From Planctomycetaceae bacterium (GTDB taxonomy: Bacteria; Planctomycetota; Phycisphaerae; SM23-33), in assembly GCA_039680605.1 (NCBI GenBank), contig JBDKTA010000005.1, positions 5,141 to 69,140 on the forward strand: 64,000 bases of DNA, given 5' to 3'. A program made the position numbers and the translations under genes. This document shows, piece by piece, positions 27,672-62,759 of the stretch (position 1 is the stretch's first letter; the number at the start of each line of letters is the position of its first letter). The notes beneath the pieces were generated by a model. It made no database searches. It had not been told where the DNA came from and was given only the letters and a program-made list of their open reading frames with translations.

Positions 27672-27700
27672 CCCTGGAAAGACAAATCCTGAACGACACA

Positions 27701-27870
27701 TTCGAAATCCGAAATCCGAAATCCGAAACAAGAAGCAAACAACAAGAAGCTAAACAGCAAAGGCTCCCACCATAGCGATTCTTGTTCTTTTTGTTTCTTT
27801 TTGTCTTTTTTTCTTCTTAGTTGTTTGCCGTTTGCTTCGAATTTCGAAATTCGAATTTCGAATTTGTTTC
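27701..27870. repeat. Inverted repeat with tandem-heptamer arms (element a)
   Basis: The left arm, (GAAATCC)x3 followed by an A-rich tract, is imperfectly complementary to the right arm, a T-rich tract followed by (TCGAAAT/TCGAATT)x4. The element fills the gap between two minus-strand genes. Confidence 0.8.
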
Positions 27871-28926: not shown

Positions 28927-29083
28927 GGTCAGGCTCCCTTCAACATGTAAAGCCGGCGCATAGCGCGGCGGCTGGCATGGATCGTTACATGATTCTAGTC
29001 GGGATGAGCGCTAATGCAACCTATCATCCTCAGCGTGCCCTGGTGGCAGGGCAACCCTGTGCCGTCGCGGGAGGGCCAACCCC

Positions 29084-29183
29084 GGTGCCGTGGCGGGAGG
29101 GCGAAGCCCGACAACCACGATCTCGCGGCGCAAGGTTCCGGGATCGTGGCTCTCCGGCCTTCGGCCTGCGCGCCACGGCACCC
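29084..29183. repeat. REP1 compound palindrome, copy A
   Basis: Outer stem GGTGCCGTGGCG/CGCCACGGCACC encloses three hairpins: GGGC-GAA-GCCC; CCACGATC...GATCGTGG; GGCC-TTC-GGCC. Degenerate extra arms flank it at 29055-29212. Confidence 0.85.
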
Positions 29184-29229
29184 TCCTTCGGCCCTGCGCG
29201 CGCCATGGCGTCTGGAGTCGAACCTGCGG

Positions 29230-29427
29230 TCAGATCTCCACCGGTTCGCAGAGGTTTTCGGCGCTGGCGGCGGCGCGGCCGCACACGTGGCAGATGAACC
29301 GGGCGTCCTTGGAATATTTCGCCACTTCGGTCATCTGCCGGCGGCTGACCAGTTCGCACATGTGGTTCTCGTGTCCGGGATGTTCCTCAACGCCCATGGG
29401 ATTTTGTGTCGGCTGATTCTTCGGCAT
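29230..29427 (-). CDS. Small Cys/His-containing hypothetical protein (65 aa)
   Basis: GGGAGAG RBS 7 nt upstream of the ATG. The composition is coding-like, unlike the surrounding shadow ORFs. Contains CEL...CHVCGR...C. Confidence 0.5.
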   Translation of the reverse strand: MPKNQPTQNPMGVEEHPGHENHMCELVSRRQMTEVAKYSKDARFICHVCGRAAASAENLCEPVEI

Positions 29428-29562: not shown

Positions 29563-30876
29563 TCACCAGGCGATCTTGATCACGTCGACATTGTCGCTGC
29601 GCAGGGCGGCGGGCAGATCGATGGTCAATTCGCCGGCCTTGAAGGACGTCTTGAGCTTCTTGCCCGTGGCCAGCATGGTCACGGCAGCGGGTTTTCCGGC
29701 GCCGCTGATGCGCGGGGCATCGCTGAAGTCGGCAGGCACGTGGACGTACCAGACGTTCTGCCCCTGGCGGGTGGTCACGGGCAGGTTGGACTGCTGGGGG
29801 AACGGTCCGCGCCCGGTGCCGAAGACGGATTCCTTATTCTTGTCCATCCAGGCCTTCAGCTCGCCCATGCGGCGGTAGTAGACCTCGGGCAGCTCGCCGT
29901 GGCGGTTGGGGGCCACGTTGAGCAGGTAGTTGCCGCCCCAGCACCGCGTGTGCGTGAAGCGGCTCAGCATGCGGCGCAGCGGCCAGTACGTTTCGTCATG
30001 GTACGTGTAGCCCCACGGACCGATGTTCCAGCGTTCGCACAGTTCCCACCAGTCCGGCGGCGGGACCGAGCCCATGCCGCACTCCCAGGTGTCGAAGTCG
30101 CCGTAACCGTGCATCCGCGGGTCGATCACCATCCCCGGCTGCATCGCCCGCAGTTCGTCCATGGAAATCACGTTAGGTCCGCCGTCGAACCACAGCAGGT
30201 CGACCTTACCGTACCAGGTCAGCAGTTCCTTGATCTGCCCGCGGATATGCGCGGCATTCTTTTCCTTCCATTCCGGCGGCTCGGGCGGAATCTCGCGCGG
30301 CTCGTGGTTCATCCCGCCGGTCTTCTCCGGGTCGCTGGCGCAGCCGAACGACATGTACTCGCGGTTGAAGTAGAAGTCCGGCGGCGAGTAGTACAGCCCG
30401 ACCTTGAGCCCGAGCTTGCGGCAGGCGGCTACGTACGGGGCCACCAGGTCGCGCCCGCCCATGTAGACGCGCGTGCCCATCTCGCCGAACTGGCTGGGCC
30501 AGAGCGTATAGCCGTCGTGGTGCTTGGTCGTCAGCACCGCATAGGTGAAGCCCGCGTCCTTGGCCGCGGCCAGCCACTTCTCCGGATCGTAGTTGTCCGG
30601 GTAGAACTTTTTGGCCAGGGCGTAGTACTCGGCGGGGGTGATCTTGTTGCGATTCTTGAGCCCGCGGTCCCAGGACGTGTTGGCGATCATGCCCCAGGAA
30701 ATATCCGCATCGCCGGCGCAACTGTTGATGCCCCAGTGCATGAACAGGCCCAGACGCCCCTCGCCGAACCACTGCGCGTCGGGGTGCGTGGTGCGCTGAA
30801 ACGTCCCGCCGCCATACTGCTGGGGGATCTGGATGATACGATGCTGTTCGCTGGCGGTACTGCTGTTGGCACACAT
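29563..30876 (-). CDS. Alpha-L-fucosidase, GH29
   Basis: GLFMHWG, KHHDGYTLWPS and LYYSP motifs; about 437 aa. Confidence 0.85.
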   Translation of the reverse strand: MCANSSTASEQHRIIQIPQQYGGGTFQRTTHPDAQWFGEGRLGLFMHWGINSCAGDADISWGMIANTSWDRGLKNRNKITPAEYYALAKKFYPDNYDPEKWLAAAKDAGFTYAVLTTKHHDGYTLWPSQFGEMGTRVYMGGRDLVAPYVAACRKLGLKVGLYYSPPDFYFNREYMSFGCASDPEKTGGMNHEPREIPPEPPEWKEKNAAHIRGQIKELLTWYGKVDLLWFDGGPNVISMDELRAMQPGMVIDPRMHGYGDFDTWECGMGSVPPPDWWELCERWNIGPWGYTYHDETYWPLRRMLSRFTHTRCWGGNYLLNVAPNRHGELPEVYYRRMGELKAWMDKNKESVFGTGRGPFPQQSNLPVTTRQGQNVWYVHVPADFSDAPRISGAGKPAAVTMLATGKKLKTSFKAGELTIDLPAALRSDNVDVIKIAW

Positions 30877-30910
30877 GCGTCTATGTTCTCCAGTTCGCGT
30901 TCGGGGACAG

Positions 30911-31113
30911 GGACGGGGAGAGCGGGATTAAGGGGATTAGAAACGGATTAAGAGGATTGGGAGAAAAGAAACAACCGACGACGAGGACGAGGACGACGAC
31001 GAGGACGATTCATCTGCTTCGGTCGCCCGTTTCCCTGTCTCTAAGCTCTTAATCCTCTTAATCCTTTTAATCCGCGTAATCCCGCACTCCCCGTCTTCTT
31101 TTCTTTCCAATCC
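30911..31113. repeat. Compound inverted repeat with (GGATTAA)n/(TTAATCC)n arms and a GAC/GAG triplet-repeat core (element c)
   Basis: 30911-30954 is complementary to 31054-31095, and 30955-30971 is complementary to 31096-31113. The core 30961-31007 recurs inverted at 48641-48679. Confidence 0.8.
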
Positions 31114-31923: not shown

Positions 31924-32794
31924 CTGTCTTGCTTTGGAAGTACTCCAACTGCCTGGGCAGGTTTTCCGCCCAGAACTGGGCGTTGTGTTTACCCGCAAGC
32001 ACCTGCCACTGGTGCGGCACCGACGCGGCCTCCAGGGCGGCGTGGGCGGCGTTGTTTTCTTTTTCGAACAGGCCGTCCTGCTGCCCGCACAGCAGCGAGA
32101 GCACCAGGCCCTTGCGCTTGGCCAGTTCCGCGATCTGCTGCTGCGCAAACAGCGCCGGGCGACCGCCGGCCGGACCCATCGCCGCCGTCAGCCCCCACGT
32201 GCGGTCGATCTTGCCTCTCCATCGCGCCGGCGTGATGCAGGCGCTGAGCCCGCCGACAGCCGAGAACAGTTCCGGATGCCCCAGCCCGATCCGCAGAGCG
32301 CCCCACCCGCCCATCGAGTTGCCGCTGATCCAGTGCCCGCCGTCGCTGATGCGATAGCCCTGCTTTTTCAGCGAGGCAATGAGCTCCCCGGTCACGAACG
32401 TCTCGGCAAAGTTCGTCCCGCCATAGTCGACCCACCACGAATTGGCTCCGGCCGTGGCGGCGATGATGATTCGCTGATACTTGTCCGCCAGCGGCGCCAG
32501 CGGGAGCATCTTGGGCCAGTCGGTGTGATCGCCCCCGACGCCGTGCAGCAGCACGATAAGGCCGTACGCCTTGGCGCTCTTGGCATATTCTGACGGCAAG
32601 ACCACTGTAGCCGAAAAGTCCTTCTTGAACGAGTCGCTGTGGATCGTGACGACGCGGGAGGCGTCACTTTGGAGTGCGGCAGCCTCAGATGCCGCTTTGG
32701 AAGTTGTTGGGAATCGAGAAACTCCCAAAGCGGCAGCTAAGGCTGCCGCACTCCATAGAGTCGCACTCCAGAAGGCTCGCCGCGCGCCGGCCAT
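31892..32794 (-). CDS. Esterase (putative esterase / esterase D family, alpha/beta hydrolase)
   Basis: LLHGVGGDHTDW and GNSMGGWGAL (GxSxG) motifs. ATG 32794 overlaps the AraC stop (TGATG) and is preceded by a GAGGAGG RBS. A REP2 palindrome lies inside codons ~14-42. Confidence 0.75.
   Translation of the reverse strand: MAGARRAFWSATLWSAAALAAALGVSRFPTTSKAASEAAALQSDASRVVTIHSDSFKKDFSATVVLPSEYAKSAKAYGLIVLLHGVGGDHTDWPKMLPLAPLADKYQRIIIAATAGANSWWVDYGGTNFAETFVTGELIASLKKQGYRISDGGHWISGNSMGGWGALRIGLGHPELFSAVGGLSACITPARWRGKIDRTWGLTAAMGPAGGRPALFAQQQIAELAKRKGLVLSLLCGQQDGLFEKENNAAHAALEAASVPHQWQVLAGKHNAQFWAENLPRQLEYFQSKTGDTETQRKQR
32670..32755. repeat. REP2 nested palindrome, copy 1 (inside the esterase CDS)
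   Basis: TGGAGTGCGGCAGCC...GCCGCTTTGG...CCAAAGCGGC...GGCTGCCGCACTCCA. The right 33 nt are identical to the copy at 46280-46374. Confidence 0.85.
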
Positions 32795-34839: not shown

Positions 34840-35184
34840 TCCACTTTTTGGCCGTTTGGCGTATCTTTTGTCTCGTTCAAGCGGCCCCGGGGAGAAACTG
34901 GGACGGCTTGACGCCTTTTTTTGATCTGAGTTCGTTCCGGTCAGTCTTCAGGAAGATTACGCTGCCCAACAGAGGGGGCAGCGTCTATCCAGCATCTGCA
35001 CGGAGCAGTCCTGGCGCGCCGCCAAAGCCGCCTTGACGAATCTGGGATTCGGCCGCGGCCGAAGAAAGGAGATCATCGCAAGTCGCGTTGCGGGAACCTT
35101 AGAGGAAGGTTCACAACGGAGCATAGGAAGGCAGGGATGCCTCAGGAGAATCGGCAAACCAACTTTTACGCACAGGAGAATCAC

Positions 35185-35919
35185 GTGAAACGCACCATTA
35201 CAGCAGTTCTGGCACTGGGGCTTATCATGACTCTGGCCGGCGTCGCACAGGCGGCAGTCGGCGACATCCTCAGCTCCGCGGGGTGGACGACCCGCGAAGG
35301 AGTCACATCCGGATGGCCCTCCAATACGGGCATTAAGGCCATCAACGGCGATGGGCTCAACGGCCTGTATCACGACCCGGGGATCTATGACAACTGGGGT
35401 CCGGTCTGGTTCACTCAGATCAATGAGGGCAACCAGTGGATCAATACGTTCTCACCGGGACGAATTTGGTTGATGGTGGACATGCAGGAAGTCCAGACCA
35501 TCGGCACGATCAACGTCTGGAACTTCGGCGATCCGGCCAGCCACCCCGCGGGCTTCAACCTCGGCGCCAAGAACGTGGACATCTACTACGCCGGCGATGG
35601 CGCGACTCTTCCGACCGCCGGAGCGTACCTCGCGCTGGACGGGACGTGGACCACCCTGATGAATGTGGACCTGAACCCCGCGCCAACGAACGGGGCGCCC
35701 TCCCTCATGAGCGACTCCCTCGACGTGACCGACTTCGACGCCCGGTATGTGATCTTCGCGATCAACAGCCGCTTCGGGTCCAACGACTACAGCGAAAACA
35801 GCGTCGCCATCGCCGAGATCCAGTTCCTCCAAGGCGCCGTCGGCGACATCCCCGAGCCGGCGACCATGAGCCTGCTGGCCATCGGCTCCCTGGCGGCGGT
35901 GATCCGCCGTCGCAGGTGA
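35185..35919 (+). CDS. Secreted F5/8-type-C (discoidin)-like domain protein with PEP-CTERM signal
   Basis: GTG 35185 follows an AGGAG RBS. Signal peptide VKRTITAVLALGLIMTLAGVAQA; IAEIQF-type domain end; C-terminal IPEPATMSLLAIGSLAAVIRRRR. Confidence 0.7.
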   Translation: MKRTITAVLALGLIMTLAGVAQAAVGDILSSAGWTTREGVTSGWPSNTGIKAINGDGLNGLYHDPGIYDNWGPVWFTQINEGNQWINTFSPGRIWLMVDMQEVQTIGTINVWNFGDPASHPAGFNLGAKNVDIYYAGDGATLPTAGAYLALDGTWTTLMNVDLNPAPTNGAPSLMSDSLDVTDFDARYVIFAINSRFGSNDYSENSVAIAEIQFLQGAVGDIPEPATMSLLAIGSLAAVIRRRR

Positions 35920-35976
35920 CGGACCGGCAGCGATGCCTTTTGGGGGCTCTGGGCCCAGCCCCATAGCCGCATCGCT

Positions 35977-36101
35977 GGGTGCCGTGGCGACCGGCTGCAA
36001 GGCGCCCGCCACGATCCCCGACGCCGGTGTGGCATTTTGTAAACCTTGGAGTTCAGGGAGCGTGGCTCTCCGGGCCTGCGGGCCTGCGGGCCACGGCACC
36101 C
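35977..36101. repeat. REP1 compound palindrome, copy D (more degenerate)
   Basis: Outer stem GGGTGCCGTGGC/GCCACGGCACCC; inner CCACGATCC...GAGCGTGG; GGCC-TGCG-GGCC. Lies between convergent genes. Confidence 0.75.
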
Positions 36102-36121
36102 ACCCATTCGCGGCGCAGCCT

Positions 36122-37597
36122 TTATTTTCGCGGCTCGAACGTGCGCTCGTCGATCACGTTGCCGTTGAGGTCGTAGGTTTTCATCTCGCACTTGTCGGCC
36201 GTCACCTCAAAGATGCAGTAGCACAGGCTGGCGTAGAACTTTTTGGAGTACGGGTTGTATTTCTCCGGATTCCTCGCCTGCCCGCGCAGCGGCGCGCCGG
36301 CGGCCCCGCTGGTGATCGAGGTGATGCCCTTGTCAGCGGGCAGTTCGCTGCGCTCGTAGTTGTGGTCGTGCCCGACGATCATGGCGGTGGCTTTGTACTT
36401 GGCCAGCAGCGGCAGGATGACGTTGCGGCTGGCCAGCATGGGCACTTCCGGGTACTTGGCGTGCGACCCGCTTGTCCATCCGGGGTAGTGCGACATCAGG
36501 AAGATAAACTTGGCCTTGGAGTCCTTCAGCACGCCCTCGAGCCACTTGGTATTGTCGTTGTCCGCCGTCCAGGCCTGCGTGCCGTCGATGCCGATCAGCA
36601 GCGTCTGTCCGATCTGCTGGTGCCAGTTCTTGGCCCGCCCGTCGCCGCCGGGGGTGTAGAACAATTCCGGATACGCCGGGCAGTTGTTCTCGTGGTTGCC
36701 GATCACCGGGTACGTCGGCACGAACGTCATGAGGTTCTTGGCCGGAGCGAAAAACTCGCGGTCCCAGATCTCATCGCTGCCGCCGCTGGTGACCATGTCG
36801 CCGCTGAAGAGCATCAGGTCGGGCTTGGACTTGGCGATCGCACCCGCCACGGCCGCCCAACGCTCCACGTGCGTACGGCAGTCGCCGGTGGCGGCAAAGC
36901 GGAAGCTCTGCCCGTCGCTGGCCGGAACGGTCACGGTGAACGGACCAGCCGACGCGGACGCCTTGCCCGACGTCGCCACGGCGGTATACGTGAAGCTCTT
37001 GGTCCCGGCCGCCAGCGGAATCTGCAGGCGGTGATAGAACCCGCGCTGGCTCGAGGCGGTCGTCTCCTTGCCCGCGTCGCTCTTGGCCGTCACGGTGACA
37101 ACGGCCGACAGCGTCGTGCGGCAGATCACCGTGAACGAGTCGGGGCTGATCGCCCCCAGCGCCGGACCGGTGCGGATCGCCATCGCCTCGGGCGCCAGCA
37201 GTTCCACGCGCGCTGCGATCTTGGCCGCGTCGGTCTTGGCGTCGCCCGCGGCCGTCACCACGATCACGTTCTCGCCCTTGACGAGGTACTTGGCCGGATC
37301 GAGGGGAATGGCCGCGTACGAGATCTTGGCGATGGGCCCCTCGACAAGCTTTCCGTTGATCGTGCAGGTCTTCTGCCCTGCCCCCGGCGCCACCGCCAGG
37401 CCGCCCACGGCAGAGAGGTCCGCCACGGTGAACACCGCCTTGGCCGTCACGGTGCCCGCCTCGCCGGCGGCCGTCGTCCAGGCAGCGCCGGTCAGGACGT
37501 TCTTGGCATCCCCCGACTGACCCTGCGCGGCGGCAGCCAGCATGACGACAGTGATAACAGAGCAGATAAACCACGACAGGGGCTTGTGCATGATCAT
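36122..37597 (-). CDS. Secreted calcineurin-like metallophosphoesterase (purple-acid-phosphatase-like) with N-terminal beta-sandwich region
   Basis: Signal peptide. GDCRTH, SGDMV, GNHEN and GHDHNYER motifs. Confidence 0.8.
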   Translation of the reverse strand: MIMHKPLSWFICSVITVVMLAAAAQGQSGDAKNVLTGAAWTTAAGEAGTVTAKAVFTVADLSAVGGLAVAPGAGQKTCTINGKLVEGPIAKISYAAIPLDPAKYLVKGENVIVVTAAGDAKTDAAKIAARVELLAPEAMAIRTGPALGAISPDSFTVICRTTLSAVVTVTAKSDAGKETTASSQRGFYHRLQIPLAAGTKSFTYTAVATSGKASASAGPFTVTVPASDGQSFRFAATGDCRTHVERWAAVAGAIAKSKPDLMLFSGDMVTSGGSDEIWDREFFAPAKNLMTFVPTYPVIGNHENNCPAYPELFYTPGGDGRAKNWHQQIGQTLLIGIDGTQAWTADNDNTKWLEGVLKDSKAKFIFLMSHYPGWTSGSHAKYPEVPMLASRNVILPLLAKYKATAMIVGHDHNYERSELPADKGITSITSGAAGAPLRGQARNPEKYNPYSKKFYASLCYCIFEVTADKCEMKTYDLNGNVIDERTFEPRK

Positions 37598-46184: not shown

Positions 46185-46279
46185 GGTCGTCTCCTTAGCA
46201 AGGCCAAGAGCATACAAGGGGCATCGCCAATTTCCAATTTCCAATTGCTCATTGCCTCTAACCTCGGCCGCGCCGCATG

Positions 46280-46374
46280 TGGAGTGCGGCGGCAGCAGCC
46301 GCCGCTTTCGATGTTGTTGCGGGCGCGAGCATCCCAGAAACAGCCAAAGCGGCAGCTAAGGCTGCCGCACTCCA
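46280..46374. repeat. REP2 nested palindrome, copy 2 (intergenic)
   Basis: Same architecture as 32670-32755, with a 10-nt insertion in the left arm. Lies upstream of the beta-helix gene. Confidence 0.85.
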
Positions 46375-46411
46375 TAAGGAACGTTCGCGGGCGCGGGGGG
46401 TTTCAAAGCCT

Positions 46412-48406
46412 ATGAAAACTGCAATGATATCATTGGCTTTAAATCTTGTATTGGCCGCCGGGGCGGGCGCGGCGGAGATTTGCGTCAGCCCCGCCGGCAA
46501 CGACGCCAACGCCGGCACGAAGGATAAACCCCTCGCCACGCCGACGGCCGCTCGCGATGCGGTGCGGAAACTCATCGCGGCCGGGCTTAAGGAGAACATC
46601 ACCGTCCTGATTGCGCCGGGCGTGTACTACCTGCCGCAGGGGCTGGCGCTGGAATCCGCCGACAGCGGCAGCGAGGCCTTCAGCGTCACCTACGCCGGTG
46701 CCGACGAAGCCCACGCGCCGGTGCTCCTCGGCGGCGGGCCGGTCACGAACCTCAAACCGTACAAGGACAAGATCTGGATCGGCGACCTGCCGCAAGGCGC
46801 GCAGCCGAAAGTCGCCACCGAGAACAACCAGTGGCTCACGCTCGCTCGCGACCCCAACGACGGCTACCACCGCACGCAGGCGGCTTCGGGCGAAAAAGCC
46901 TTCATCTACAAGGGTGACCTCTTTGGCGCCATGGCCGGGCAGGATGTTTCCAGCGGCTGGGTGAATGTCTGGCCGGGGCAGGGATGGTTCAATCACGTCT
47001 GGCAGATCACCGCGCTGGACCCCAAGACCCGCAGCGTCGGCTTCGTGCGCACCAGCGGCATGGGCGGGCCGGTCGCGGCCAACAACCGCTTCTACCTCAT
47101 GAACCTGCTGGGCCTGCTCGACAAGAGCGGCGAGTGCGTGATCGACGTCGCCGCGGGCAAGTTCTACGTCTGGCCGGGCCGGGGCGAGGCGGCAGAGAAC
47201 GCTTACGCCGTCGTCACGGCAGAGAACGTCCTCAGCATACGCGGGCGCGACGATGCGCCCGTGCGCAACGTCCACCTGCGCAACCTGGACCTGAGCGTGG
47301 CCGCCGGCGAGGCGGTCTTCATCACCAACGCCCAGGACTGCTCGATCCGCGCCTGCCGCATCGCCAACTGCTGGGGCCAGGGCGTTTCGGTCTGGCAGGC
47401 CAATCGCCGCATCACCATCGCCGACAGCGAGATCGCCTTCACCGGCGACCGCGGCGTGCATCTGCGCGGGGCCAATTGGAAAGGGCCGGACATCAGCAGC
47501 CATCACGTGGTGGAGAACTGCCACATCCATCACGTCGGTCGCGTGGTGCATACGTCGGCCGGCGTGCAGATCTTCCAGAGCGGGCACAACCGCGTCGTAC
47601 ACAACCACATCCACGACAGCCCGCGCTACGGCGCGAGCATCAAGGGCCTGGCGCTGCGGTCGATGAACGAGAGCGACCAGACCAAGGCCCGGCGGTTTGA
47701 ATTGCTGCACGCCCGCAACAACGTGCTGGCGTACAACCACATTCACCACGTCTGCCTCGACAGCGAAGACTGCGGCGCGATGGAGAGCTGGGGGCCGGGC
47801 AAGGACAACGTCTATGATCACAACCTGATCCACGACGTTGGCACGGGGCACGTGCTGCTGATCTGCGGGATCTATCTCGACGATTCGTCGAACTATTTCA
47901 CCGTCACCAACAACGTCGTCTACGCCGTCAACGGGTCGGGGCACATTCAGCAGATCTACGCCAAGGGCATCCACAACACGATCGAGAACAATATTTTCGT
48001 CGCCGGCCGCACGGGCTCGGCCATCCGCTCCAAGAGTTCGGGCGAGGTCGGCTTCCACACGTACCGCCGCAACATCATCTGGTTCGACCAGCCGGACGGC
48101 CCGCTGTTTCAGTTCGACGACTGGGACAAAGACCGCATCACCGAGTGCGATTACAACCTGTACTTCAACATCTCCGGCAAGCTGCGCATCGCGGGGCGGA
48201 CGTCGTACCGCGGCCCCTTCCCCGGCACGTGGACGCAGGCGTACGACAAGCACAGCGTGGTGGCCGATCCGAAGTTCGTCGACGTGTCAAAGCGGGACTA
48301 CCGCCTGCAGGACGATTCGCCGGCGCTGAAGCTGGGGATCAAGTCCGTCGACGTGCGCAGCGCCGGATTGACCGACAAGTTTCCCAAGCGATTGGCACGC
48401 GAATAG
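46412..48406 (+). CDS. Secreted right-handed parallel beta-helix repeat protein (pectate-lyase fold)
   Basis: Signal peptide MKTAMISLALNLVLAAGAGAA. N-terminal motif SPAGNDANAGTKDKPLAT. Repeated N..I..C/H.. beta-helix rungs. Paralogue of 51619-53607. Confidence 0.75.
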   Translation: MKTAMISLALNLVLAAGAGAAEICVSPAGNDANAGTKDKPLATPTAARDAVRKLIAAGLKENITVLIAPGVYYLPQGLALESADSGSEAFSVTYAGADEAHAPVLLGGGPVTNLKPYKDKIWIGDLPQGAQPKVATENNQWLTLARDPNDGYHRTQAASGEKAFIYKGDLFGAMAGQDVSSGWVNVWPGQGWFNHVWQITALDPKTRSVGFVRTSGMGGPVAANNRFYLMNLLGLLDKSGECVIDVAAGKFYVWPGRGEAAENAYAVVTAENVLSIRGRDDAPVRNVHLRNLDLSVAAGEAVFITNAQDCSIRACRIANCWGQGVSVWQANRRITIADSEIAFTGDRGVHLRGANWKGPDISSHHVVENCHIHHVGRVVHTSAGVQIFQSGHNRVVHNHIHDSPRYGASIKGLALRSMNESDQTKARRFELLHARNNVLAYNHIHHVCLDSEDCGAMESWGPGKDNVYDHNLIHDVGTGHVLLICGIYLDDSSNYFTVTNNVVYAVNGSGHIQQIYAKGIHNTIENNIFVAGRTGSAIRSKSSGEVGFHTYRRNIIWFDQPDGPLFQFDDWDKDRITECDYNLYFNISGKLRIAGRTSYRGPFPGTWTQAYDKHSVVADPKFVDVSKRDYRLQDDSPALKLGIKSVDVRSAGLTDKFPKRLARE

Positions 48407-48514
48407 GGTGGCATGGCGACACGCGTTTCTGTTTCACGCGGGTCGCCATGGACGGCTGTGGACGCGCCCCGTGCCTCATGGCGACCCCGGTAAAACTGGT
48501 GTCGCCATGCCACC
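48407..48514. repeat. REP1-family variant palindrome
   Basis: Outer stem GGTGGCATGGCGAC/GTCGCCATGCCACC encloses the hairpins CGCG...CGCG and GGTCGCCATGG...CATGGCGACC. It is in tandem with REP1 copy B. Confidence 0.75.
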
Positions 48515-48532
48515 CGCCGCGGGAGTAGTGAA

Positions 48533-48631
48533 GGGTGCCGTGGCGGGCAGGCCCGAAGGGCCAACAGCCACGATCCCTGATCTTCCGGCCCGTCGTGGCT
48601 GTCGGCCTGAAGGCCTCCCGCCACGGCACCC
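48533..48631. repeat. REP1 compound palindrome, copy B
   Basis: 15-bp outer stem GGGTGCCGTGGCGGG/CCCGCCACGGCACCC. Inner hairpins GGCCC-GAA-GGGCC; AGCCACGA...TCGTGGCT; GGCC-TGAA-GGCC. Confidence 0.85.
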
Positions 48632-48640
48632 GCTCGTTCT

Positions 48641-48679
48641 CGTCCTCGTCGTCGTCCTCGTCGTCGGTTTTCTCTTCTC
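48641..48679. repeat. Inverted copy of the GAC/GAG triplet-repeat core of element c
   Basis: CGTCCTCGTCGTCGTCCTCGTCGTCGGTTTTCTCTTCTC matches the reverse complement of 30961-31007, apart from a 6-nt indel and a few mismatches. Confidence 0.75.
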
Positions 48680-48682
48680 GGA

Positions 48683-51436
48683 CTACCGCTTGGGAATCAT
48701 TCCTACTGATCCCTGCACGGGGTAAGGACACGTGCAACCGCTGGACGCCTCGGGCATCAGCACCATGCCGCCGGCGGGGATGATGTTGATCCAGCAGCCC
48801 GGGCGCGTCGCCGTGGTCAGGTGCTCGCTGGCCGGCGTCGAGAGGTCCGTCATCTGCGGGTACCCGCCGCGATTGAACACCTGCTTGGCCGAAGCGGAAA
48901 CCGCTCCGCAGCCGCCGCCGTTGCGCCCCCACTGCCAGTTGGGCACGGCCTTGCCCGTCTTGAGCTCGTACTGCACCGCGGGGATGAACAGCCGCTCGCC
49001 GACGATGACCGCGCGGTAAGCGTTTTCGCCGTGGCTGCCGTCGGCGGCCTTGGCGCCCGGGCCGGTGTGCTCCATCTTCCACAGCCGATTGCCGCTGGCG
49101 GCGTCGAAGGCCTGCAGGTCGTACTTCAGCATCCCGCGCTTGCCGCCGGCGACGGTGCGCGAGTCGGTGGTGACGACCACGCCCCCGGCGACGCTGAGGA
49201 ACAGCATGTGCTGGGCGGCTTCGAGGTCGGCCTTCTGGCGGTAGACCACCTTGCCGTCGCGCACATCCAGCGCCACCAACACGCCCCCGCCGCTCATCAG
49301 CACGGGCAGGGGCACGCGGCCGGCCGCGTCTTCGCGCGACTTGGGATTCGTGCTCTCGATGAAGTACATCCGCCCATCCGCCACGGCGATGGTCGAGTTG
49401 ACGATCATGCCCTCCTGCGGGCGGTAGGTCCACAGGCGCGTGCCGCTATGGCGATCGACGGCGAAGACGTTCTCGCTGCAGACCATGGGCGAGAGCGGGT
49501 TATACGAAAACTGCCAGGTGCTCTGGCCGATCTCGCGCCGATGCGCCCCGGGGCGGCACAGGCTGCCAAAGAGGGCGTCGCCCACGGTGGCCACATAGCC
49601 CCACTCGCAGGCCTTGCCGCCGATGTCGGCGTTGACGGTCAACTTTTTCTGGCCCGTCCGCACGTCGTAGGCCTCACACGCCCCGCCGGCGGCGATATAG
49701 AGCAGGTCTTCCGCCACGGCCATATTGCCGCAGGCTTTGCTGGTGTCCAGGCGCACGGAATTGGGCAGGGCGTGTTCCCAGAGCATCGCGCCGTTGTACG
49801 AGTCGACGCAGGCCAGGTAGTCGTAGCCGCTGACGAACAGCCGTCCGTCGCGATACAGCGGGGCGGCGGCGCGGTTGTGCCGGTCGGCCATCGTCCGCGG
49901 ACCCGGCAGGCCAAACCACTGGACCGTCATGCCCGCCCCGACCAGCGTCTCGCCGCTGCAGGTGCTGTTGCCCGCGTCGGCGTAGCAGTGCGTCCATTGG
50001 CCCGCGCCTTCCAGCGGGCCGCGAATGACGGCTTTGCCCGCCTCGGTCACCGTCACGCCGCCGCAGGGGCGGGTGACGCGCTGCGCCTCGGCCTGGAAAG
50101 CCGCCGGCGCGTTGAGCACGAGATTGAAAAGGTAGTCGCTGTAGGGCAGCGCGTCGGCCTTGGCCTCATGCACGCTCACGCGGCCGCTCATGCCGCGGGC
50201 GTCCACAACCTTTCTCGCCGCGGCGGCGGCCGGGGCATCGGCGGCGGTCATCACCACCTGCATCTTCGACTGTCGCGCGACTTCGCACGCCAGTTCGGCC
50301 GGCCCGCCGATCACCAGCGCGTAGCCTTTGTCGGTCTGGGCCTTGGCCAGGGCGTCCTTGGCGAGGGCGGCGAACTTCTCGTCAGACGCGGCAGCCTTGG
50401 GCGCCGCGGCCTGGACTACCGTGCCCGCGCCGCTGCCGGGGGCGAAGCAGTAGATCTTGCCTGCATCGGTGCTGACCAGGAGCTTGCCGCCAGCCACCGC
50501 CAGCGACCAGGCTTTGCCCTCGACCTTGAGCGTCCAGATCTTGTTCTTTGCCTTGAAGGCCGCCACCTCGCCGTCGCCGCCGGCGATGCGGATTTCGTCG
50601 GTGCCGATGAAGCAGTACGGATATGCCGCCGCACAGGGCTCGTGCTTGAGGATCGAACCGGCCGCCGGCGTGGCGACCGTGTCGACCGCGCCGCCGGCCG
50701 TGCGACCCGCCGGGGCGAACACCTGCGTCCCCTGCAGGCGCAGATATCCCTGGGCCGCCACCGCGACGGACTTCGAGGAGAGCTTCTTGCCGCTGGCGAT
50801 GTCCGCCGTCACCACATAAACGCCGCCGCCCTGGTTGGGAAAGAGCCCCGCGCAGAAATACGCCACGTTGCCGCTGACGAGCACGCTGGTGCGCACCGGC
50901 CAGAGACTGATGATGCGCCCGTTGCCGGCGATGCGCCGGTCCTGGTCGGTCGCGCGGAGCTTCCAGATCAGCGTTCCATCGGCGGCCTTGAGTGCGTACG
51001 CGCAGCCGTCGTCGCTGGCGAAGAGCACCTTGTCGCCAACGACCGTCGGCGCCAGGCGCACGGGGCCTTCCGTGGCGAACGCCCACAACTCTTTGCCGGT
51101 GGCGGCGTCGAGGCAGCGGACGTTGTCGTCGGCCGATGAGCCGAAGAACACGCGCCCGCCGGCGGAGACCACCTGGAACGCGCGGTCGTACGGACAGTCG
51201 GGGGCGAGGTTCTTCTTGGAATGAAAGACGTCATCCTTGGCCGGGTCCGGCCAGGCCGGCGCGGGGGGCATCGCGGCGGTGTACACCCACTGCAGGGCAA
51301 GGGGCCCGGGAAGCTTGTCGGTCGATTCGCCCGTTCGGGCGGCATCGTGCATGTACGTGGGCCAATCCTCAGCCTGCAGAGGCAGGGCGTTTACAAGCAG
51401 AGCGACCAGCACCGCGGGCAAGAACTTCTGAACCAT
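48683..51436 (-). CDS. Secreted PQQ-like (BamB-type) beta-propeller protein with an inserted Rossmann/SAM-methyltransferase-like segment
   Basis: Signal peptide. DWPTYMHDAARTG start typical of PQQ-propeller repeats. The middle segment YALVIGGPAELACEVARQSKMQVVM...LFNLVLN is MTase-like. Paralogue of 58635-62594. Confidence 0.75.
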   Translation of the reverse strand: MVQKFLPAVLVALLVNALPLQAEDWPTYMHDAARTGESTDKLPGPLALQWVYTAAMPPAPAWPDPAKDDVFHSKKNLAPDCPYDRAFQVVSAGGRVFFGSSADDNVRCLDAATGKELWAFATEGPVRLAPTVVGDKVLFASDDGCAYALKAADGTLIWKLRATDQDRRIAGNGRIISLWPVRTSVLVSGNVAYFCAGLFPNQGGGVYVVTADIASGKKLSSKSVAVAAQGYLRLQGTQVFAPAGRTAGGAVDTVATPAAGSILKHEPCAAAYPYCFIGTDEIRIAGGDGEVAAFKAKNKIWTLKVEGKAWSLAVAGGKLLVSTDAGKIYCFAPGSGAGTVVQAAAPKAAASDEKFAALAKDALAKAQTDKGYALVIGGPAELACEVARQSKMQVVMTAADAPAAAAARKVVDARGMSGRVSVHEAKADALPYSDYLFNLVLNAPAAFQAEAQRVTRPCGGVTVTEAGKAVIRGPLEGAGQWTHCYADAGNSTCSGETLVGAGMTVQWFGLPGPRTMADRHNRAAAPLYRDGRLFVSGYDYLACVDSYNGAMLWEHALPNSVRLDTSKACGNMAVAEDLLYIAAGGACEAYDVRTGQKKLTVNADIGGKACEWGYVATVGDALFGSLCRPGAHRREIGQSTWQFSYNPLSPMVCSENVFAVDRHSGTRLWTYRPQEGMIVNSTIAVADGRMYFIESTNPKSREDAAGRVPLPVLMSGGGVLVALDVRDGKVVYRQKADLEAAQHMLFLSVAGGVVVTTDSRTVAGGKRGMLKYDLQAFDAASGNRLWKMEHTGPGAKAADGSHGENAYRAVIVGERLFIPAVQYELKTGKAVPNWQWGRNGGGCGAVSASAKQVFNRGGYPQMTDLSTPASEHLTTATRPGCWINIIPAGGMVLMPEASSGCTCPYPVQGSVGMIPKR

Positions 51437-51540: not shown

Positions 51541-51611
51541 TCCTGTTCTTTGTTGTTTAATTGTTTTGTCGTTTGTTTCGGATTTGTCTTTTCGTATTTC
51601 GAATTTGCTGG
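51541..51611. repeat. T-rich low-complexity tract resembling the right arm of element a
   Basis: TCCTGTTCTTTGTTGTTT...GTCGTTTGTTTCGGATTTG...TATTTCGAATTTG resembles 27781-27866. It ends 8 nt before the start codon at 51619. Confidence 0.6.
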
Positions 51612-56459: not shown

Positions 56460-56490
56460 TAAGCCTTCGGCCAAGCTTTCGACTAAAGGG

Positions 56491-57270
56491 GTCAGGAACC
56501 TTTTCGTGTTGCAGTGCTTGGCAAGAGGCGGTATGCTGTTGCTATGCCGCGAAGTCTTCGGGTCAATCTGGGCGGGTTCGTCTATCACGTGCTCAACCGC
56601 TCCAACGGGCGGCAGAGGCTGTTCCGCTGCGACGAGGACTACCAGTTGTTCCTTGACGTGCTGGCGGCCGCGCATGAGCGCGGGGCGATGCGCACGATCG
56701 GCTATTGCGTCATGCCCAATCACTGGCACCTGGTCCTCTGGCCGCGCGACGACGGCGACCTGTCGGCGTTCGTGCGGTGGCTGACGCTGACGCACACGCA
56801 GCGTGTCCACGCCCGGCGCGGCACGGCCGGGGCGGGGCACGTCTACCAGGGGCGGTTCAAGAGTTTCCTGATCGAGCAGACGCGTCCGCCGGCGGCCCGG
56901 CGGGCGATGGGCGTGCTGGAAGGCGGCGACGCGGTGCTGTCGGTGCTGCGGTACGTCGAGCGCAACGCCGTCAAGGCCGGCTTGGCGACGCGGGCGCAAG
57001 CCTGGCCGTGGTGCAGCGCCCACGCGCGGCTGCACAAGACCGAGGCGCCGGTGCCGCTGACACCGCCGCCGGGCGGCCTGCCGCAGGACTGGCTCGACTG
57101 GGTCAACCGCCCGCATAGCGACAAGGAACTGGCGGCCTTGCAGCGGTGCATCGAGCGAGGCGTCCCGTTCGGCCGCGAGCCATGGGTCAAGCGGACGGCC
57201 GCCGAACTGGGCCTCCAAAGCACCCTCCACCCCCGCGGCCGACCGAAAATAGCAGAAAAAGGTTCCTGAC
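56491..57270 (+). mobile_element. RAYT (IS200-like Y1 transposase) unit bounded by a perfect 14-nt inverted repeat
   Basis: GTCAGGAACCTTTT (56491-56504) and AAAAGGTTCCTGAC (57257-57270) bracket the transposase CDS. Confidence 0.75.
56544..57269 (+). CDS. REP-associated tyrosine transposase (RAYT, IS200-like Y1 transposase)
   Basis: HUH motif (VMPNHWHLVLW), catalytic-Tyr region (LRYVERNAVKAGL), and C-terminal W.WCS...GRPK tail. Confidence 0.85.
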   Translation: MPRSLRVNLGGFVYHVLNRSNGRQRLFRCDEDYQLFLDVLAAAHERGAMRTIGYCVMPNHWHLVLWPRDDGDLSAFVRWLTLTHTQRVHARRGTAGAGHVYQGRFKSFLIEQTRPPAARRAMGVLEGGDAVLSVLRYVERNAVKAGLATRAQAWPWCSAHARLHKTEAPVPLTPPPGGLPQDWLDWVNRPHSDKELAALQRCIERGVPFGREPWVKRTAAELGLQSTLHPRGRPKIAEKGS

Positions 57271-57406
57271 TTTGTTCCCCCCTGGCCCCTTTGTTCCCCC
57301 GCGGAGGCGGGCTCGGTGGGGCGCACCCCGGCGTCGCCACGGCTATGCAGATCATCCGCCAGCGCTATGGCGATTCGGAATGGCCCAGCCGCAAGACGAT
57401 CAGCCG

Positions 57407-58231: not shown

Positions 58232-58372
58232 GACCCCGGCTCAAAATGCATGATCGCCCATGTACTATATTCCCCCAAAGACGTATTGCCAAATCACTGA
58301 TCGTCATCTTTACGCAATCTTCAGGAATTGCCCGATGGCGAGGGGTAAACCCGAACTGTCTCGTACAGCGTC

Positions 58373-58489
58373 GTGCCGCGAAGTCTTCGGGTCAATCTGG
58401 GCGGGACGTGCTCAACCGTACCAACGGGCGGCAGAGGCTGTCCGCTGGCACGAGGACTACCAGTTGTTCCTCGACGTGCTGGCGGCCGC
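58373..58489 (+). pseudogene. 5' fragment of a RAYT gene (frameshifted)
   Basis: Near-identical at nucleotide level to 56544-56670, but with a 10-nt and a 1-nt deletion. The similarity ends at GGCGGCCGC. Confidence 0.7.
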
Positions 58490-58634
58490 CACTCTTACGT
58501 GTACTCATGTATCCTGCCTCCATTTGTCAATGGTAATAGCTTACCTTCCCAAATAATCGCTGTGAAAAGTACAACAAAGTGCAAGGAATGTGCAAGCGCA
58601 GGGTCGGACGCCCCTGCTGCTTCCGCGGGGGCGA

Positions 58635-61600
58635 TTATTGTCCTTCCACGCACTCGAGGCCGCTCAGGATCGGCTTACCGGTTCTTGGTTTGAACTCGAC
58701 GGTCAGCTTGTCGGACACGCTGACGTTCTTGAGTTCGACGACGAGCGAGCGCTTGGGTCCGCCGGCGGCGGCCGCGACGTCGAGGCCCTGCCGGACGACC
58801 TTGCCCTGGACGATGACGTCGAAGACGCGCTGACCGGCAGCGAGGTCGTCCATCTCGGCGAAGACCAGTCGCACCGTGTGCGGCCGCGCGGGCGAACCGT
58901 CCGGGCCCATTCTCACCGATAGCGACTCGATACCTTCGGCGACGCTGGAAGCCACCCACCCCAGCGAGCCCGAGACGGTCGAGGGGTCCTGGCGGTGCAT
59001 GGTGCCATTGAACTCGACGACCGTCGTGGCCTTCCTGCCGGAACCGACCTGTCGCCGCCCGCCGGGCTTGAGGTCCACACCCAGGTCCATCTCGGGGCTG
59101 CCGGCGGGAGGATACTCCAGCCAGAGCGTTCCCTCGTGCAGGCGGTCGCCGGGGGCGCCGAGGTTAAGGCCAATACGCTTGAGCACGCCCTCGGTCGGCG
59201 GAGGCAGAACGCTGTAGGTCCACATCTGCGCCTCGGGCATATGCACCAGCGCCAGCGAGGCCTGCAGCGGGTACGAGCAACTGCACGTGCGGGTGTAGTC
59301 AGGTGCGCTGAGGACGCCGTCGGCGGCAATCAGGTTCGAGGTGCAGCCGCTCTTGAACCCGCCGAAGTTTCCCGTGCCGCCCTGGCCGACCAGGTCGTAA
59401 TAGCCCGCCGTGCCGCTGCGGAAGAACATCATGTTCTGGCTGGCGATAGCGGTGTTGCAGCCGTAGAAGCGATGCCACGCCCAGGGCACTTCCTGTCCGC
59501 TGACGGGGTGGCGCACCGTCGCGGGCTGACCGGTCTTCAACAGGAACGCCACGCCGCCCCCGCCGCCGTTGGTGATGCCGCGGTCGCGCCAGAGCAGGAC
59601 CGGCCCCTCGATCTTGCGCTCCATGTCCTGCCAGAGCACGCCGCCGTCGGCGCCGCGATAGGCGACGATACCCCGCCCCGCCTCGTCGCCGGCGCGGTCG
59701 CGCGACCCGCTGCCGCACTGCAGCAGCACGTCGTGCGCCGAGGAGTATCCCAGCCACGTGCCGAAGATGTCCTTGTCGGCCGACCAGGCTTCCTTGCCGC
59801 TGGTGAGGTCCAGCGCCACCAGCCGTCCCGGCGGCGTCGGTTGACCGATGAACGTCAACTGCGCGCGGTTGCCTTCGGAGAGATTGTCCAGCGCGAAGAC
59901 CTTACCCGCGCCGGTCGTGACGGCGTTGTGGCGGTACGCCACCGCCGCCCCGCGCTGCCAGAGAATCTTGCCGCTGTTGCGATCGAGGGCGACGAGGTTG
60001 CGCGAACTGGCGCCGAATCGCGCGTTGAGCTTGACGTCCCCGGCGGCCGCCAGGTTGAACGTGGCGCCCATGGGCTTGGGTTGCGGTTTGCTCTTGGACT
60101 TGGGATTGGGCATCTGCACTTGAATGTCCATCGGCTCGGTGGTGGCGACCAGCACGTCGCCGACGATCATCAGCACGCCCCAGTTTGGCGCGGCGCAGCC
60201 GGGGCGGGCGGGAGCCTTGAATGTCGCGGCGGTCTTGCCGGTGGCCGCGTCGAGCACAACGATGTCGGGCCCGTTGATCAGGTACAGGCGGTCGGCCGTG
60301 ACGGCGTAGTTGGAACCGAACTGATTGGCGCCGGGGATATGCCCCTGGTTGTAGCTGTCATCGCGAATGTCGTCTTTGAAACTCTTGTCCCAGTACATCC
60401 CGAAGTTGCTGAAGCCTTCGATCTTCCGCTGCCAGAGCACCCGCCCGGTGTACACGTCGCGGGCGGAGATCATGTTGATGCCCTCGATGAACAGCCGCCC
60501 GCCGGCGACCTGGGGATTGGGCCCGTGCCCGTGACGGGGCAGCACATCGAGGAAGTTGTCACTGCCGAACCAGAGCAGCCCCAGCGGGGCCGCCACGCGC
60601 TGTTCGGCGCCGACGACGGAATTGGAGGCGTCGGCGTACTGGTGCGTCCACTCGCCGGCGCCGGGCAGGGCGCCGCTGCGGCGGATGCGAACGTCAGTCC
60701 CGGCAGTGTCCACGCTCGCCCCGTCAAGTTTGCCGCCTCGGGCCCAGGCGGCCAGCGCCTCGCCGCCGGGCAAGACCGCCACGCCGCCATAAGGCCGCAA
60801 CGGCGCCACCAGGCGCTCAACGCTGCATTTGCCCGCGTCGAAGCCCGCCGCCGCCACGTCCTCGCTGGCGATCAGGCTGGCGAAGTACGGCGAGAGGTCG
60901 TAGTCGAAACCGTTGCCGACGATGGCAGCCACGCGCGGGCCATAGAGCCCCGCCTCGCTCATGCGGCGGCGGAAGGCGTCGGCCTTGGCGGCGTCGGGTT
61001 CGATCACGACGACGTGCAGCTTCGACTGGCGGACGAGTTCCTCGACCAGCCGTCCGCTGCCGGCGCCCAGCACCAGGGCGTACCCTTCGGTGGCGCTGGC
61101 AGCCAATAGCGCCTTGGCGCGGTCGGTCCAGGGGTCGGCCGCCGGCGCCGCAGCGGGCTTGAGCTCGTGCGTGATCGGCGAGCCGCCGCCGGCGCCGTAG
61201 CAGTAGATGCCGCCCTCGCGCGTGACGACGAAGAGCTTGCCGTCAGCGGCGATTGCACGGTGGAACTTGCCGCGGAACTGACCGGTGAAATCCTGCCCCA
61301 CGCGCCCGCCCTGCTCGAGCACCGCCGAGACGATCGTGCCGTCAGGCCCCGGGCCATAGAACTTGTCGCCGGCACGGATGACGATCTCCTTCATCATCGG
61401 CGAGAGCTTGCCCAGCCAGATGGGCTTGAACTTGTCGACGGGAACTTTCTTGCCCTTCTTGTCGAAGCCTTCGCCGAAGTAGTGCTCCAGGCCTTTGAAC
61501 TCGGCGGTAGCGATGTCGAGCATGAAGACCTGGTTGTTCTCACCCAGAAACCCCGGGGCGCCGCCGGTCTTGTTGCCGTCCAGGGTGTAGCGCTGGCCGG

Positions 61601-62594: not shown

Positions 62595-62633
62595 TAGGTA
62601 TCCTTTCAAACAACAGCAGGAACTACTGTCAGC

Positions 62634-62737
62634 GGGTGCCGTGGCGCGCAGGGCCGGAAGGCCCGGAGAGCCACGATCCCTGAGCGTTGCAGCAAGAGGT
62701 CGTGGCTGTCGGGCTATCGCCCTGCCGCCACGGCACC
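62634..62737. repeat. REP1 compound palindrome, copy C
   Basis: Outer stem GGTGCCGTGGCG/CGCCACGGCACC. Inner hairpins GGGCC-GGAA-GGCCC; GCCACGA...TCGTGGC; GGGC-TATC-GCCC. Lies between tandem paralogous genes. Confidence 0.85.
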
Positions 62738-62759
62738 TGCGCAACACTCTGCGCAATTA

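Follow-up and report, generated by a model that had tools for sequence, protein, structure and literature searches.

What kind of genetic element is REP1, a compound palindrome of about 100 nucleotides (nt) that recurs between the genes of an uncultured planctomycete? The question was raised by contig JBDKTA010000005.1, of which we analysed a 64-kb stretch of planctomycete DNA with 64% GC, referred to here in its whole length as the window. A first-pass annotation had described five copies in the window, had proposed that they fold into a three-hairpin "cloverleaf" with compensatory base changes, and had suggested either an unusual mobile repeat or a family of structured noncoding RNAs. All five elements are present, with ends that agree with this description to within 1 nt. 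We consider it likely that REP1 is a lineage-restricted, noncoding, dispersed DNA repeat of the type formed by doublets of repetitive extragenic palindromes (REPs), as in REPINs (REP doublets forming hairpins), head-to-head REP heterodimers and bacterial interspersed mosaic elements (BIMEs). The initial placement of the element in the REP world is upheld. Elements of this type are a familiar form of selfish or semi-domesticated DNA in bacteria. By its design and mechanism we class REP1 as REP-doublet-like and treat it as a new family, rather than as a proven system of REPINs and REP-associated tyrosine transposases (RAYTs).

Four of the elements are REP1 copies that share the outer stem GGTGCCGTGGCG/CGCCACGGCACC and the internal stem GCCACGA(T/C)/(G/A)TCGTGGC. 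They are designated c1 (29084-29183), c2 (35978-36100), c4 (48534-48630) and c5 (62635-62737). The fifth element, at 48407-48514, is a variant that follows the REP1 design with a different sequence. The exact 12-mer GGTGCCGTGGCG occurs seven times on both strands of the 64 kb, always at REP1 elements. Also, the pattern CGTGGC-N15-40-GCCACG is found eight times in the window, compared with 0.86 occurrences expected from shuffled sequences, and seven of these eight lie inside the elements. These counts bear out the proposal that the window carries a repeated compound palindrome.

Because the core CGTGGC/GCCACG recurs four times per element with alternating orientation, each element amounts to two hairpin units of ~35 nt in inverted arrangement, and the tips of these units are the "side hairpins" of the original description. 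Each unit (31-37 nt) consists of the tag GGTGC, a basal stem CGTGGC...GCCACG, asymmetric spacers, a tip stem of 4-5 bp and a loop of 3-4 nt. The units are pairwise and inverted in every copy, with none occurring singly within the window, and the GGTGC tags of both units point outward. In the orientation that we call form A, the left part of the element reads GGTGC-CGTGGC-G, then spacer CGCA, tip hairpin X (GGGCC-GAA-GGCCC) and spacer GGAGA. The middle part consists of GCCACG-AT, CCCYGA and a variable loop, and the right part of GT-CGTGGC, spacer TGTC, tip hairpin Y (GGGC-TTC-GCCC), spacer TCCC and GCCACG-GCACC. The element ends are invariant, and the spacer that separates the units (20-45 nt, or about 10-45 nt between the central arms) is conserved in its first bases (ATCCCYGA) and free in the remainder. 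A fixed difference distinguishes the two units, both in the tips (GGGCC/GGCCC versus GGGC/GCCC) and in the spacers (CGCA/GGAGA versus TGTC/TCCC), and this gives the element a polarity. For example, in c5 the outer 5' arm (62635-62646) is followed by spacer CGCA, tip hairpin X (62651-62664), spacer GGAGA, the central 5' arm (62670-62677), the loop (62678-62698), the central 3' arm (62699-62706), spacer TGTC, tip hairpin Y (62711-62722) and the outer 3' arm (62726-62737).

BIMEs of E. coli are the classical case, in which two REP types alternate in orientation. BIMEs are known to bind host proteins. The first-pass annotation had regarded the element as unusual for a REP. We disagree on this point, as it consists of two ordinary inverted hairpins of ~35 nt, a design that has already been described (PMC3116915, PMC3733652). 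REPINs are made of two inverted REPs with a less conserved spacer, form a hairpin, show compensatory changes and leave singlets as decay products (PMC3116915). REP dimers have spacers of 20-100 bp, include heterodimers with different stems and loops, and can fold either separately or as one large stem-loop; REP families are also found in Planctomycetes (PMC3733652).

The REPINs of P. fluorescens SBW25 (Bertels & Rainey 2011, PMC3116915) resemble REP1 in being an inverted unit pair of ~70-110 nt that can form a long hairpin in single-stranded DNA or RNA. They are likewise extragenic and dispersed, with compensatory changes and decayed partial copies, and with the doublet as the repeated entity. 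REP1 differs in that its host is a planctomycete known from a metagenome-assembled genome (MAG), only tens of copies are present, each unit is compound, with a large internal loop between its basal stem and its tip stem, and the two units are fixed, mutually different variants. The dimers of GTAG- or CGTC-tagged REPs (Di Nocera et al. 2013, PMC3733652) and BIMEs share with REP1 the head-to-head arrangement with unit 5' ends outside, heterodimeric partners, a partly conserved spacer of 20-100 bp, complementary stem changes, units of 20-40 bp and separate or joint folding. REP1 differs from them in its terminal GGTGC, and it forms no arrays or clusters apart from one nested copy.

The mutually complementary cores allow a single strand to fold in three ways, namely as a long hairpin, as a four-way junction (the cloverleaf) or as twin unit hairpins. 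The copies are far more stable than their dinucleotide shuffles (z = -6 to -9.7), with the degenerate copy c2 at about -2. Folding was compared among the 18 complete REP1 copies of an alignment oriented to form A (alignment A2). The mean minimum free energy (MFE) for REP1 is -70 kcal/mol with RNA parameters and -39 kcal/mol with DNA parameters. The corresponding means are -68 and -37 kcal/mol for the long hairpin, -63 and -34.5 kcal/mol for the cloverleaf, and -49.5 and -25.5 kcal/mol for the twin unit hairpins. The long hairpin is the MFE structure in 14 of the 18 copies. By contrast, the four-way junction is the MFE structure of the variant with both RNA and DNA parameters, and the variant's tips cannot pair with each other. 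The RNAalifold consensus of the 18 copies is also the four-way junction, albeit with a tiny covariation term (-0.62).

Evidence of covariation is confined to the tips. Under the cloverleaf, 98.7% of cells are paired, and double changes affect five pairs in 11 cells, all within tips X and Y. Local pairing of the two tips reaches 97.7% and 98.6%, compared with 93-94% when X is paired with Y, where eight cells are broken (for example, in L010 and in c1). The side hairpins thus vary and yet stay paired, as had been noticed at first, in what is a small and related sample. The outer and central stems are invariant and therefore provide no covariation information. Since the tips are part of both folds, their covariation does not discriminate between the cloverleaf and two REP-unit hairpins. 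We also tried the asymmetry between G-U and A-C pairs as a test of the functional strand; the count of 14 to 1 on the form-A strand reflects one inherited position and is uninformative. The cloverleaf stands in part: it is the consensus fold and the optimal fold of the variant, but most REP1 copies favor the long hairpin. Four cores arranged in the inverted REP-doublet design produce a cloverleaf automatically, and we regard it as a legitimate alternative fold and a by-product of this known design.

To find REP1 elsewhere, one genome for each of 185,579 species was scanned with a pattern. The scan gave 15 exact-ended copies on 13 loci, all in MAG GCA_039683615.1 ('Phycisphaerae bacterium 5_bin.122'; isolate 5_bin.122). 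This genome belongs to the same species as GCA_021371965.1, shares ~87% identity with the window in syntenic DNA, and is referred to here as the sister species. Matches outside the phylum, among them Limnochordales, Frankiaceae and Silanimonas, were rejected, as they share only the 12-nt ends and have unrelated interiors. A terminal-pattern scan of metagenome contigs from the Joint Genome Institute (JGI) yielded no REP1 relatives, only two unrelated palindromes. A covariance model of REP1 (R1) was searched against the window and ~290 kb of loci fetched for comparison (numbered with the prefix L). It added a truncated copy (L009:1-92) and a decayed orthologue in L025, and its other matches were already known. 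Two loci from GCA_021372275.1 ('Planctomycetaceae bacterium'), L023 and L028, are 99.97% identical to the window or share its genes and element copies, and the window organism is present in a wastewater metagenome. REP1 is restricted to a single lineage of uncultured Planctomycetota from wastewater.

Sequencing depth in the source metagenome is ~600 for REP1 (at c4) and ~180 for the variant, compared with ~25 for unique DNA. These depths suggest roughly 20 or more copies of REP1 and about seven of the variant. Assemblies break at the element; for example, L029 begins inside a copy. A separate 113-nt sequence (L001:2495-2607, L019:1619-1731, L021:2009-2121), common to Limnochordales/Bacillota MAGs and one metagenome contig, has the same 13-nt termini as REP1 (GGTGCCGTGGCGG ... 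CCGCCACGGCACC) around an unrelated interior. Its termini may be a coincidence or may reflect a shared recognition motif. GCA_021371965.1 and GCA_039683615.1 encode an identical S49 peptidase (P0160). The former is named 'Planctomycetaceae bacterium' and the latter 'Phycisphaerae bacterium', and the class-level label is inconsistent for at least one of them.

Three window sites (c1, c2 and c5) can be compared with the sister species. In the orthologue of c5 (L002:450-550), 4 of 103 positions are changed. All four lie in the central loop or the Y loop, and the stems and spacers, about 84 positions in total, are unchanged. Around it, the intergenic flank differs at 13 of 63 positions and coding DNA at 19 of 165. 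At 13% divergence, the chance of seeing no change in 84 positions is about 1e-5. The orthologue of c1 (L025:9760-9886; 35 bits) has decayed: its 5' half can still be recognised, and its 3' half is gone. The c2 copy is absent from the sister species, where the orthologous intergenic region in L025 is unrelated sequence. A mixture of kept, decayed and absent copies is typical of families of REPs, REPINs or miniature inverted-repeat transposable elements (MITEs). Individual sites are dispensable, and some are held constant by selection or conversion.

The beta-helix gene beside c4 has no close orthologue, with 62% identity as the best match, and L026 and L027 are paralogous regions without REP1 copies. 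Apparent joints between DNA contigs at 48451-48637 and 28997-29226 were not taken as evidence of excision, as they most likely represent other repeat copies or a larger indel. Sequencing runs were compared as contigs, in which rare excision reads are not visible.

All window copies are intergenic, as had been claimed. This assignment uses crude gene calls based on GC content at third codon positions (GC3), backed by Pfam matches of the flanking genes and by gene calls attached to L023, L025 and L028. Eleven REP1 copies begin 2-22 nt past a stop codon, and three lie between divergent genes. Relative to the nearest upstream gene, form A is sense in 10 cases and antisense in four (two-sided binomial p about 0.18). 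The flanks of the 18 copies contain no conserved sequence except one extra G...C pair, and no T tract 3' of REP1. A terminator scan found no terminator-like site at c1 or c2, and an intrinsic terminator was rejected because the hairpin has no T run. A tRNA- or tmRNA-like element was dismissed after ARAGORN found no such genes. An integron attC site (RYYYAAC ... GTTRRRY) does not fit either, as the termini are GGTGCC...GGCACC and the copies are dispersed in both orientations.

Might REP1 be a structured RNA that is selected at the RNA level, with dispersal at the DNA level as a secondary matter? The junction could then act in 3' UTRs or between cistrons as a signal for processing, stability or termination, or it could be released as a small RNA. 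The role of the junction as RNAalifold consensus and as MFE structure of the variant would suit this explanation, as would the compensatory changes in both side hairpins, the position of most copies just past stop codons, the restriction of changes to loops in the c5 orthologue and the mild sense excess of form A. Transcription was examined by using a metatranscriptome from the same study, available as unstranded contigs that may contain DNA. Two of its contigs (X3) fully span copies: 35958-36133 covers c2 at a depth of 8.2, and 62554-62750 covers c5 at 4.5. Another contig (29189-29354) ends 6 nt from c1.

However, these depths are within the range of the neighboring genes (2-15). REP1 copies are thus transcribed together with their neighbors, and a discrete abundant product is not indicated. 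The orientation of the element is not fixed, the c1 orthologue decayed without replacement, and the near-perfect two-fold symmetry is that of DNA-level palindromes, with G-U pairs specific to RNA at one inherited position. Rfam gave no matches at gathering score in the window, and two permissive scans of three elements returned solely generic miRNA-precursor hairpins below threshold (at most 25 bits). The lack of a matching Rfam family agrees with the first-pass interpretation. The discrete structured RNA that the first-pass annotation envisaged is not borne out, given the mixed orientation and low RNA depth. We consider selection as an RNA unlikely.

A related idea is that the four-way junction itself is the selected form, since two sequence-unrelated families, REP1 and the variant, keep its layout (outer stem, side hairpin, central hairpin, side hairpin) with side hairpins that covary independently. 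If so, the elements would represent a structurally new REP-like class, and the junction-shaped single-stranded DNA or RNA might be the substrate of an enzyme, such as a Y1 transposase of the TIRYT type acting in trans, or of a host factor for 3' ends. We regard selection of the junction as distinctly unlikely.

Equally improbable, in our judgment, is a host site for DNA structure or protein binding (a cruciform, or a target of a nucleoid protein or topoisomerase) that is under selection, homogenised by gene conversion and no longer mobile. BIMEs of E. coli are reported targets of nucleoid protein or topoisomerase. A host site would be consistent with the strict conservation of stems and spacers in the c5 orthologue amid diverging flanks, with the retention of mismatched spacers (CGCA versus TCCC, GGAGA versus TGTC) across copies, and with the lack of a transposase linked to REP1. 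However, the decay of c1 and the absence of c2 in the sister species indicate that sites are dispensable. Also, copy number apparently differs between the species (four in 64 kb and a depth of ~24x, versus 15 exact copies in the whole genome of the sister species), and there is no binding protein to point to.

Correia/NEMIS and ERIC elements are intergenic palindromic repeats of ~100-150 nt that are co-transcribed and can form long hairpins, with defined terminal inverted repeats and target-site duplications (TA for Correia); REP1 lacks target-site duplications, and its interior is palindromic. A MITE of a DDE-type insertion sequence, with the 12-13-nt termini (GGGTGCCGTGGCG) as terminal inverted repeats for a transposase encoded elsewhere, would explain these perfect termini, the ~100-nt size, the dispersal, the differences in presence between species and the nesting of one copy in the remnants of another, but it is very improbable given that target-site duplications flank none of the 18 copies, that complementarity is modular through the whole element rather than limited to its termini, and that no longer element with the same termini is found in the window or the ~290 kb of loci.

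We therefore return to the REP doublet. In the mechanism that we propose, the doublet would spread as single-stranded DNA through a Y1 (HUH) transposase of RAYT-like type that acts in trans and recognises the unit hairpins. Such recognition would explain why the tips remain self-paired whatever the partner. After insertion behind genes, the hairpin might serve as a bidirectional barrier or stabiliser of 3' ends, and this role could explain why some copies are retained unchanged. Mobilisation in trans by some Y1 enzyme appears to be the most economical mechanism, and the Y1 gene of the window is not demonstrably the mobiliser.

This gene had been called an intact RAYT and linked to REP1. It lies at 56514/56544-57269 on the plus strand, within a TIRYT-type Y1 unit (56487-57271) that we list as context and not as part of REP1. 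The protein matches Pfam Y1_Tnp (35 bits) and has the HUH motif HWH and the motif YVERNA. Against the NCBIfam RAYT equivalog REP_Tyr_transpos it scores 57.6 bits, below the cut-off of 80. The unit has its own inverted repeats, GGGGTCAGGAACCTTTT at 56487-56504 and the inverted copy AAAAGGTTCCTGAC at 57257-57271, which overlaps the stop codon. These 15-nt terminal repeats start with GGGGTCAG, fitting GGGGWSAS, and the inverted repeat GGGGTCAGGAACC is not dispersed; across all loci, it occurs at transposase copies only. A second copy of the gene in the same genome loses similarity exactly at the inverted repeat. Besides the window copy, this genome contains at least two others at contig ends (94% and 87% identical) and a fragment at 58364-58490; copies are located at L023:1-730 and L024:1-609. 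Databases contain more than 7,000 relatives of the family, many of them on contigs of ~1 kb. This multicopy unit looks like an active element resembling an insertion sequence and not like a domesticated, single-copy RAYT, and the proposed link to REP1 is not sustained.

Terminal inverted repeats that start with GGGGWSAS define the TIRYT or 'TIRtron' class (PMC3733652, PMC6006769). This class probably corresponds here to subclass 2.1 of Quentin et al., in which no REPs were found beside the genes (PMC6006769). The window unit resembles it in its RAYT-like Y1_Tnp protein of ~240 amino acids, its GGGGTCAG-type terminal repeats and the lack of an adjacent REP. It differs in being clearly multicopy (at least three copies plus a fragment, 87-94% identical and in several cases located at contig ends), in its Y motif (YVERNA, not Y---NP), and in having inverted repeats without a dispersed family.

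Several observations weigh against REP1 as a mobile REP doublet. Its units begin with GGTGC in 18 of 18 copies (GGTGG in the variant) and have no GTAG or CGTC tag, the mark of most REPs described so far. A lone unit hairpin is weak (its basal stem has 6 bp and its internal loop is 5x5), and the twin-hairpin fold is ~20 kcal/mol worse than the MFE with RNA parameters. A cognate RAYT flanked by REP1 was not found in the window or the fetched loci. The window's sole Y1 gene has terminal inverted repeats of its own, and a scan of the window with R1 found no REP1 within 5 kb of it, the nearest copy being 5.4 kb away. A tblastn search with the Y1 protein of 8-kb loci around 14 sister-species copies gave no match (within ~4 kb). 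The total of 19 copies includes many that are nearly identical, and the covariation statistics are weak. We infer mobility from presence and absence between species, and the conservation of c5 could result from gene conversion or from host-level selection other than protection of 3' ends.

The variant at 48407-48514, to which we assign no strand, contains its core CATGGCGAC/GTCGCCATG four times between the termini GGTGG/CCACC. Its tip hairpins (CGCGT..ACGCG and CCGGT..ACTGG) bear no relation to one another, and it is not detected by R1. It begins right after the TAG stop codon of gene 46277-48406. A second palindromic family of ~100 nt is present at 32661-32764 and 46280-46374 (TGGAGTGCGGCAGC ... 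GCTGCCGCACTCCA, with the inner palindrome GCGGCA..TGCCGC in its arms), and part of it also lies next to the REP1 copy in L014. The depth of this family in the source metagenome is ~1,720, compared with ~25 for unique DNA, which implies a copy number far above that of REP1.

The surroundings of the four REP1 copies are as follows. The c1 copy (form A on the minus strand; R1 score 97.5 bits) lies 157 nt upstream of an S49 peptidase gene and 47 nt downstream of a small conserved open reading frame (ORF) of 65 amino acids (29230-29427, minus strand). It sits within what is left of an older REP1-like copy, two remnants of which adjoin it at 29058-29083 (TGTGCCGTCGCG GGA GGGCCAACCCC) and 29184-29212 (CTCC TTCGGCCC TGCGCG CGCCATGGCG), as read directly from the sequence. 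The nesting, including the junction at the former remnant, is shared with L025 and is therefore ancestral. The ORF is rich in Cys and His (..HMCELV..CHVCGR..LCEPVEI), has no recorded Pfam family, and recurs at L025:9519-9716 and L028:9500-9697. It has ~85% nucleotide identity in the sister species and is covered by metatranscriptome contig 29189-29354.

The most diverged copy, c2 (form A on the minus strand; 71.5 bits), has one outer-stem mismatch (GGCCACGGCACC) and a longer, unique central loop. It lies between the convergent genes for a PEP-CTERM protein (35137-35919, plus strand) and a metallophosphoesterase (36122-37597, minus strand). The c4 copy (form A on the plus strand; 97.4 bits) has the tips GGCCC-GAA-GGGCC and GGCC-TGAA-GGCC, and also lies between convergent genes, which encode the beta-helix protein (46277-48406, plus strand) and a PQQ protein (48683-51436, minus strand). 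Its 3' end abuts one copy of a (GACGAG/GACGAC)n-like repeat, whose inverted copies at 30963-31008 and 48634-48679 are 87-96% complementary. A similar run flanks the copy in L020, and a related groundwater metagenome has a very high depth (572 at 30736-31002).

The c5 copy (form A on the plus strand; 110 bits) sits between tandem PQQ/malectin paralogues on the minus strand, 22 nt past the stop codon of the upstream gene. These PQQ beta-propeller/malectin genes (58635-62594 and 62760-63998) have 70-81% nucleotide identity over stretches (59232-59798 versus 63402-63983), and the sister species keeps both paralogues and the REP1 element between them. Elsewhere in the window, AT-rich intergenic repeats of TTTCGAA type, in tandem or inverted, are found at 27697-27731, 27824-27866 and 51565-51607, and may be promoter or regulator sites.

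For genome annotation, the practical consequence is that REP1 elements break assemblies and create spurious ORFs, and they should be masked rather than called as genes or noncoding RNAs. Almost everything known about REPs and REPINs comes from Proteobacteria, and REP1 is a well-defined doublet family in uncultured Planctomycetota. Together with a multicopy TIRYT-type Y1 transposase and a sister species that has kept, decayed and empty sites, it provides a small, usable case that bears on which HUH enzymes move untagged REP doublets and on why some copies, such as the c5 orthologue, are frozen.

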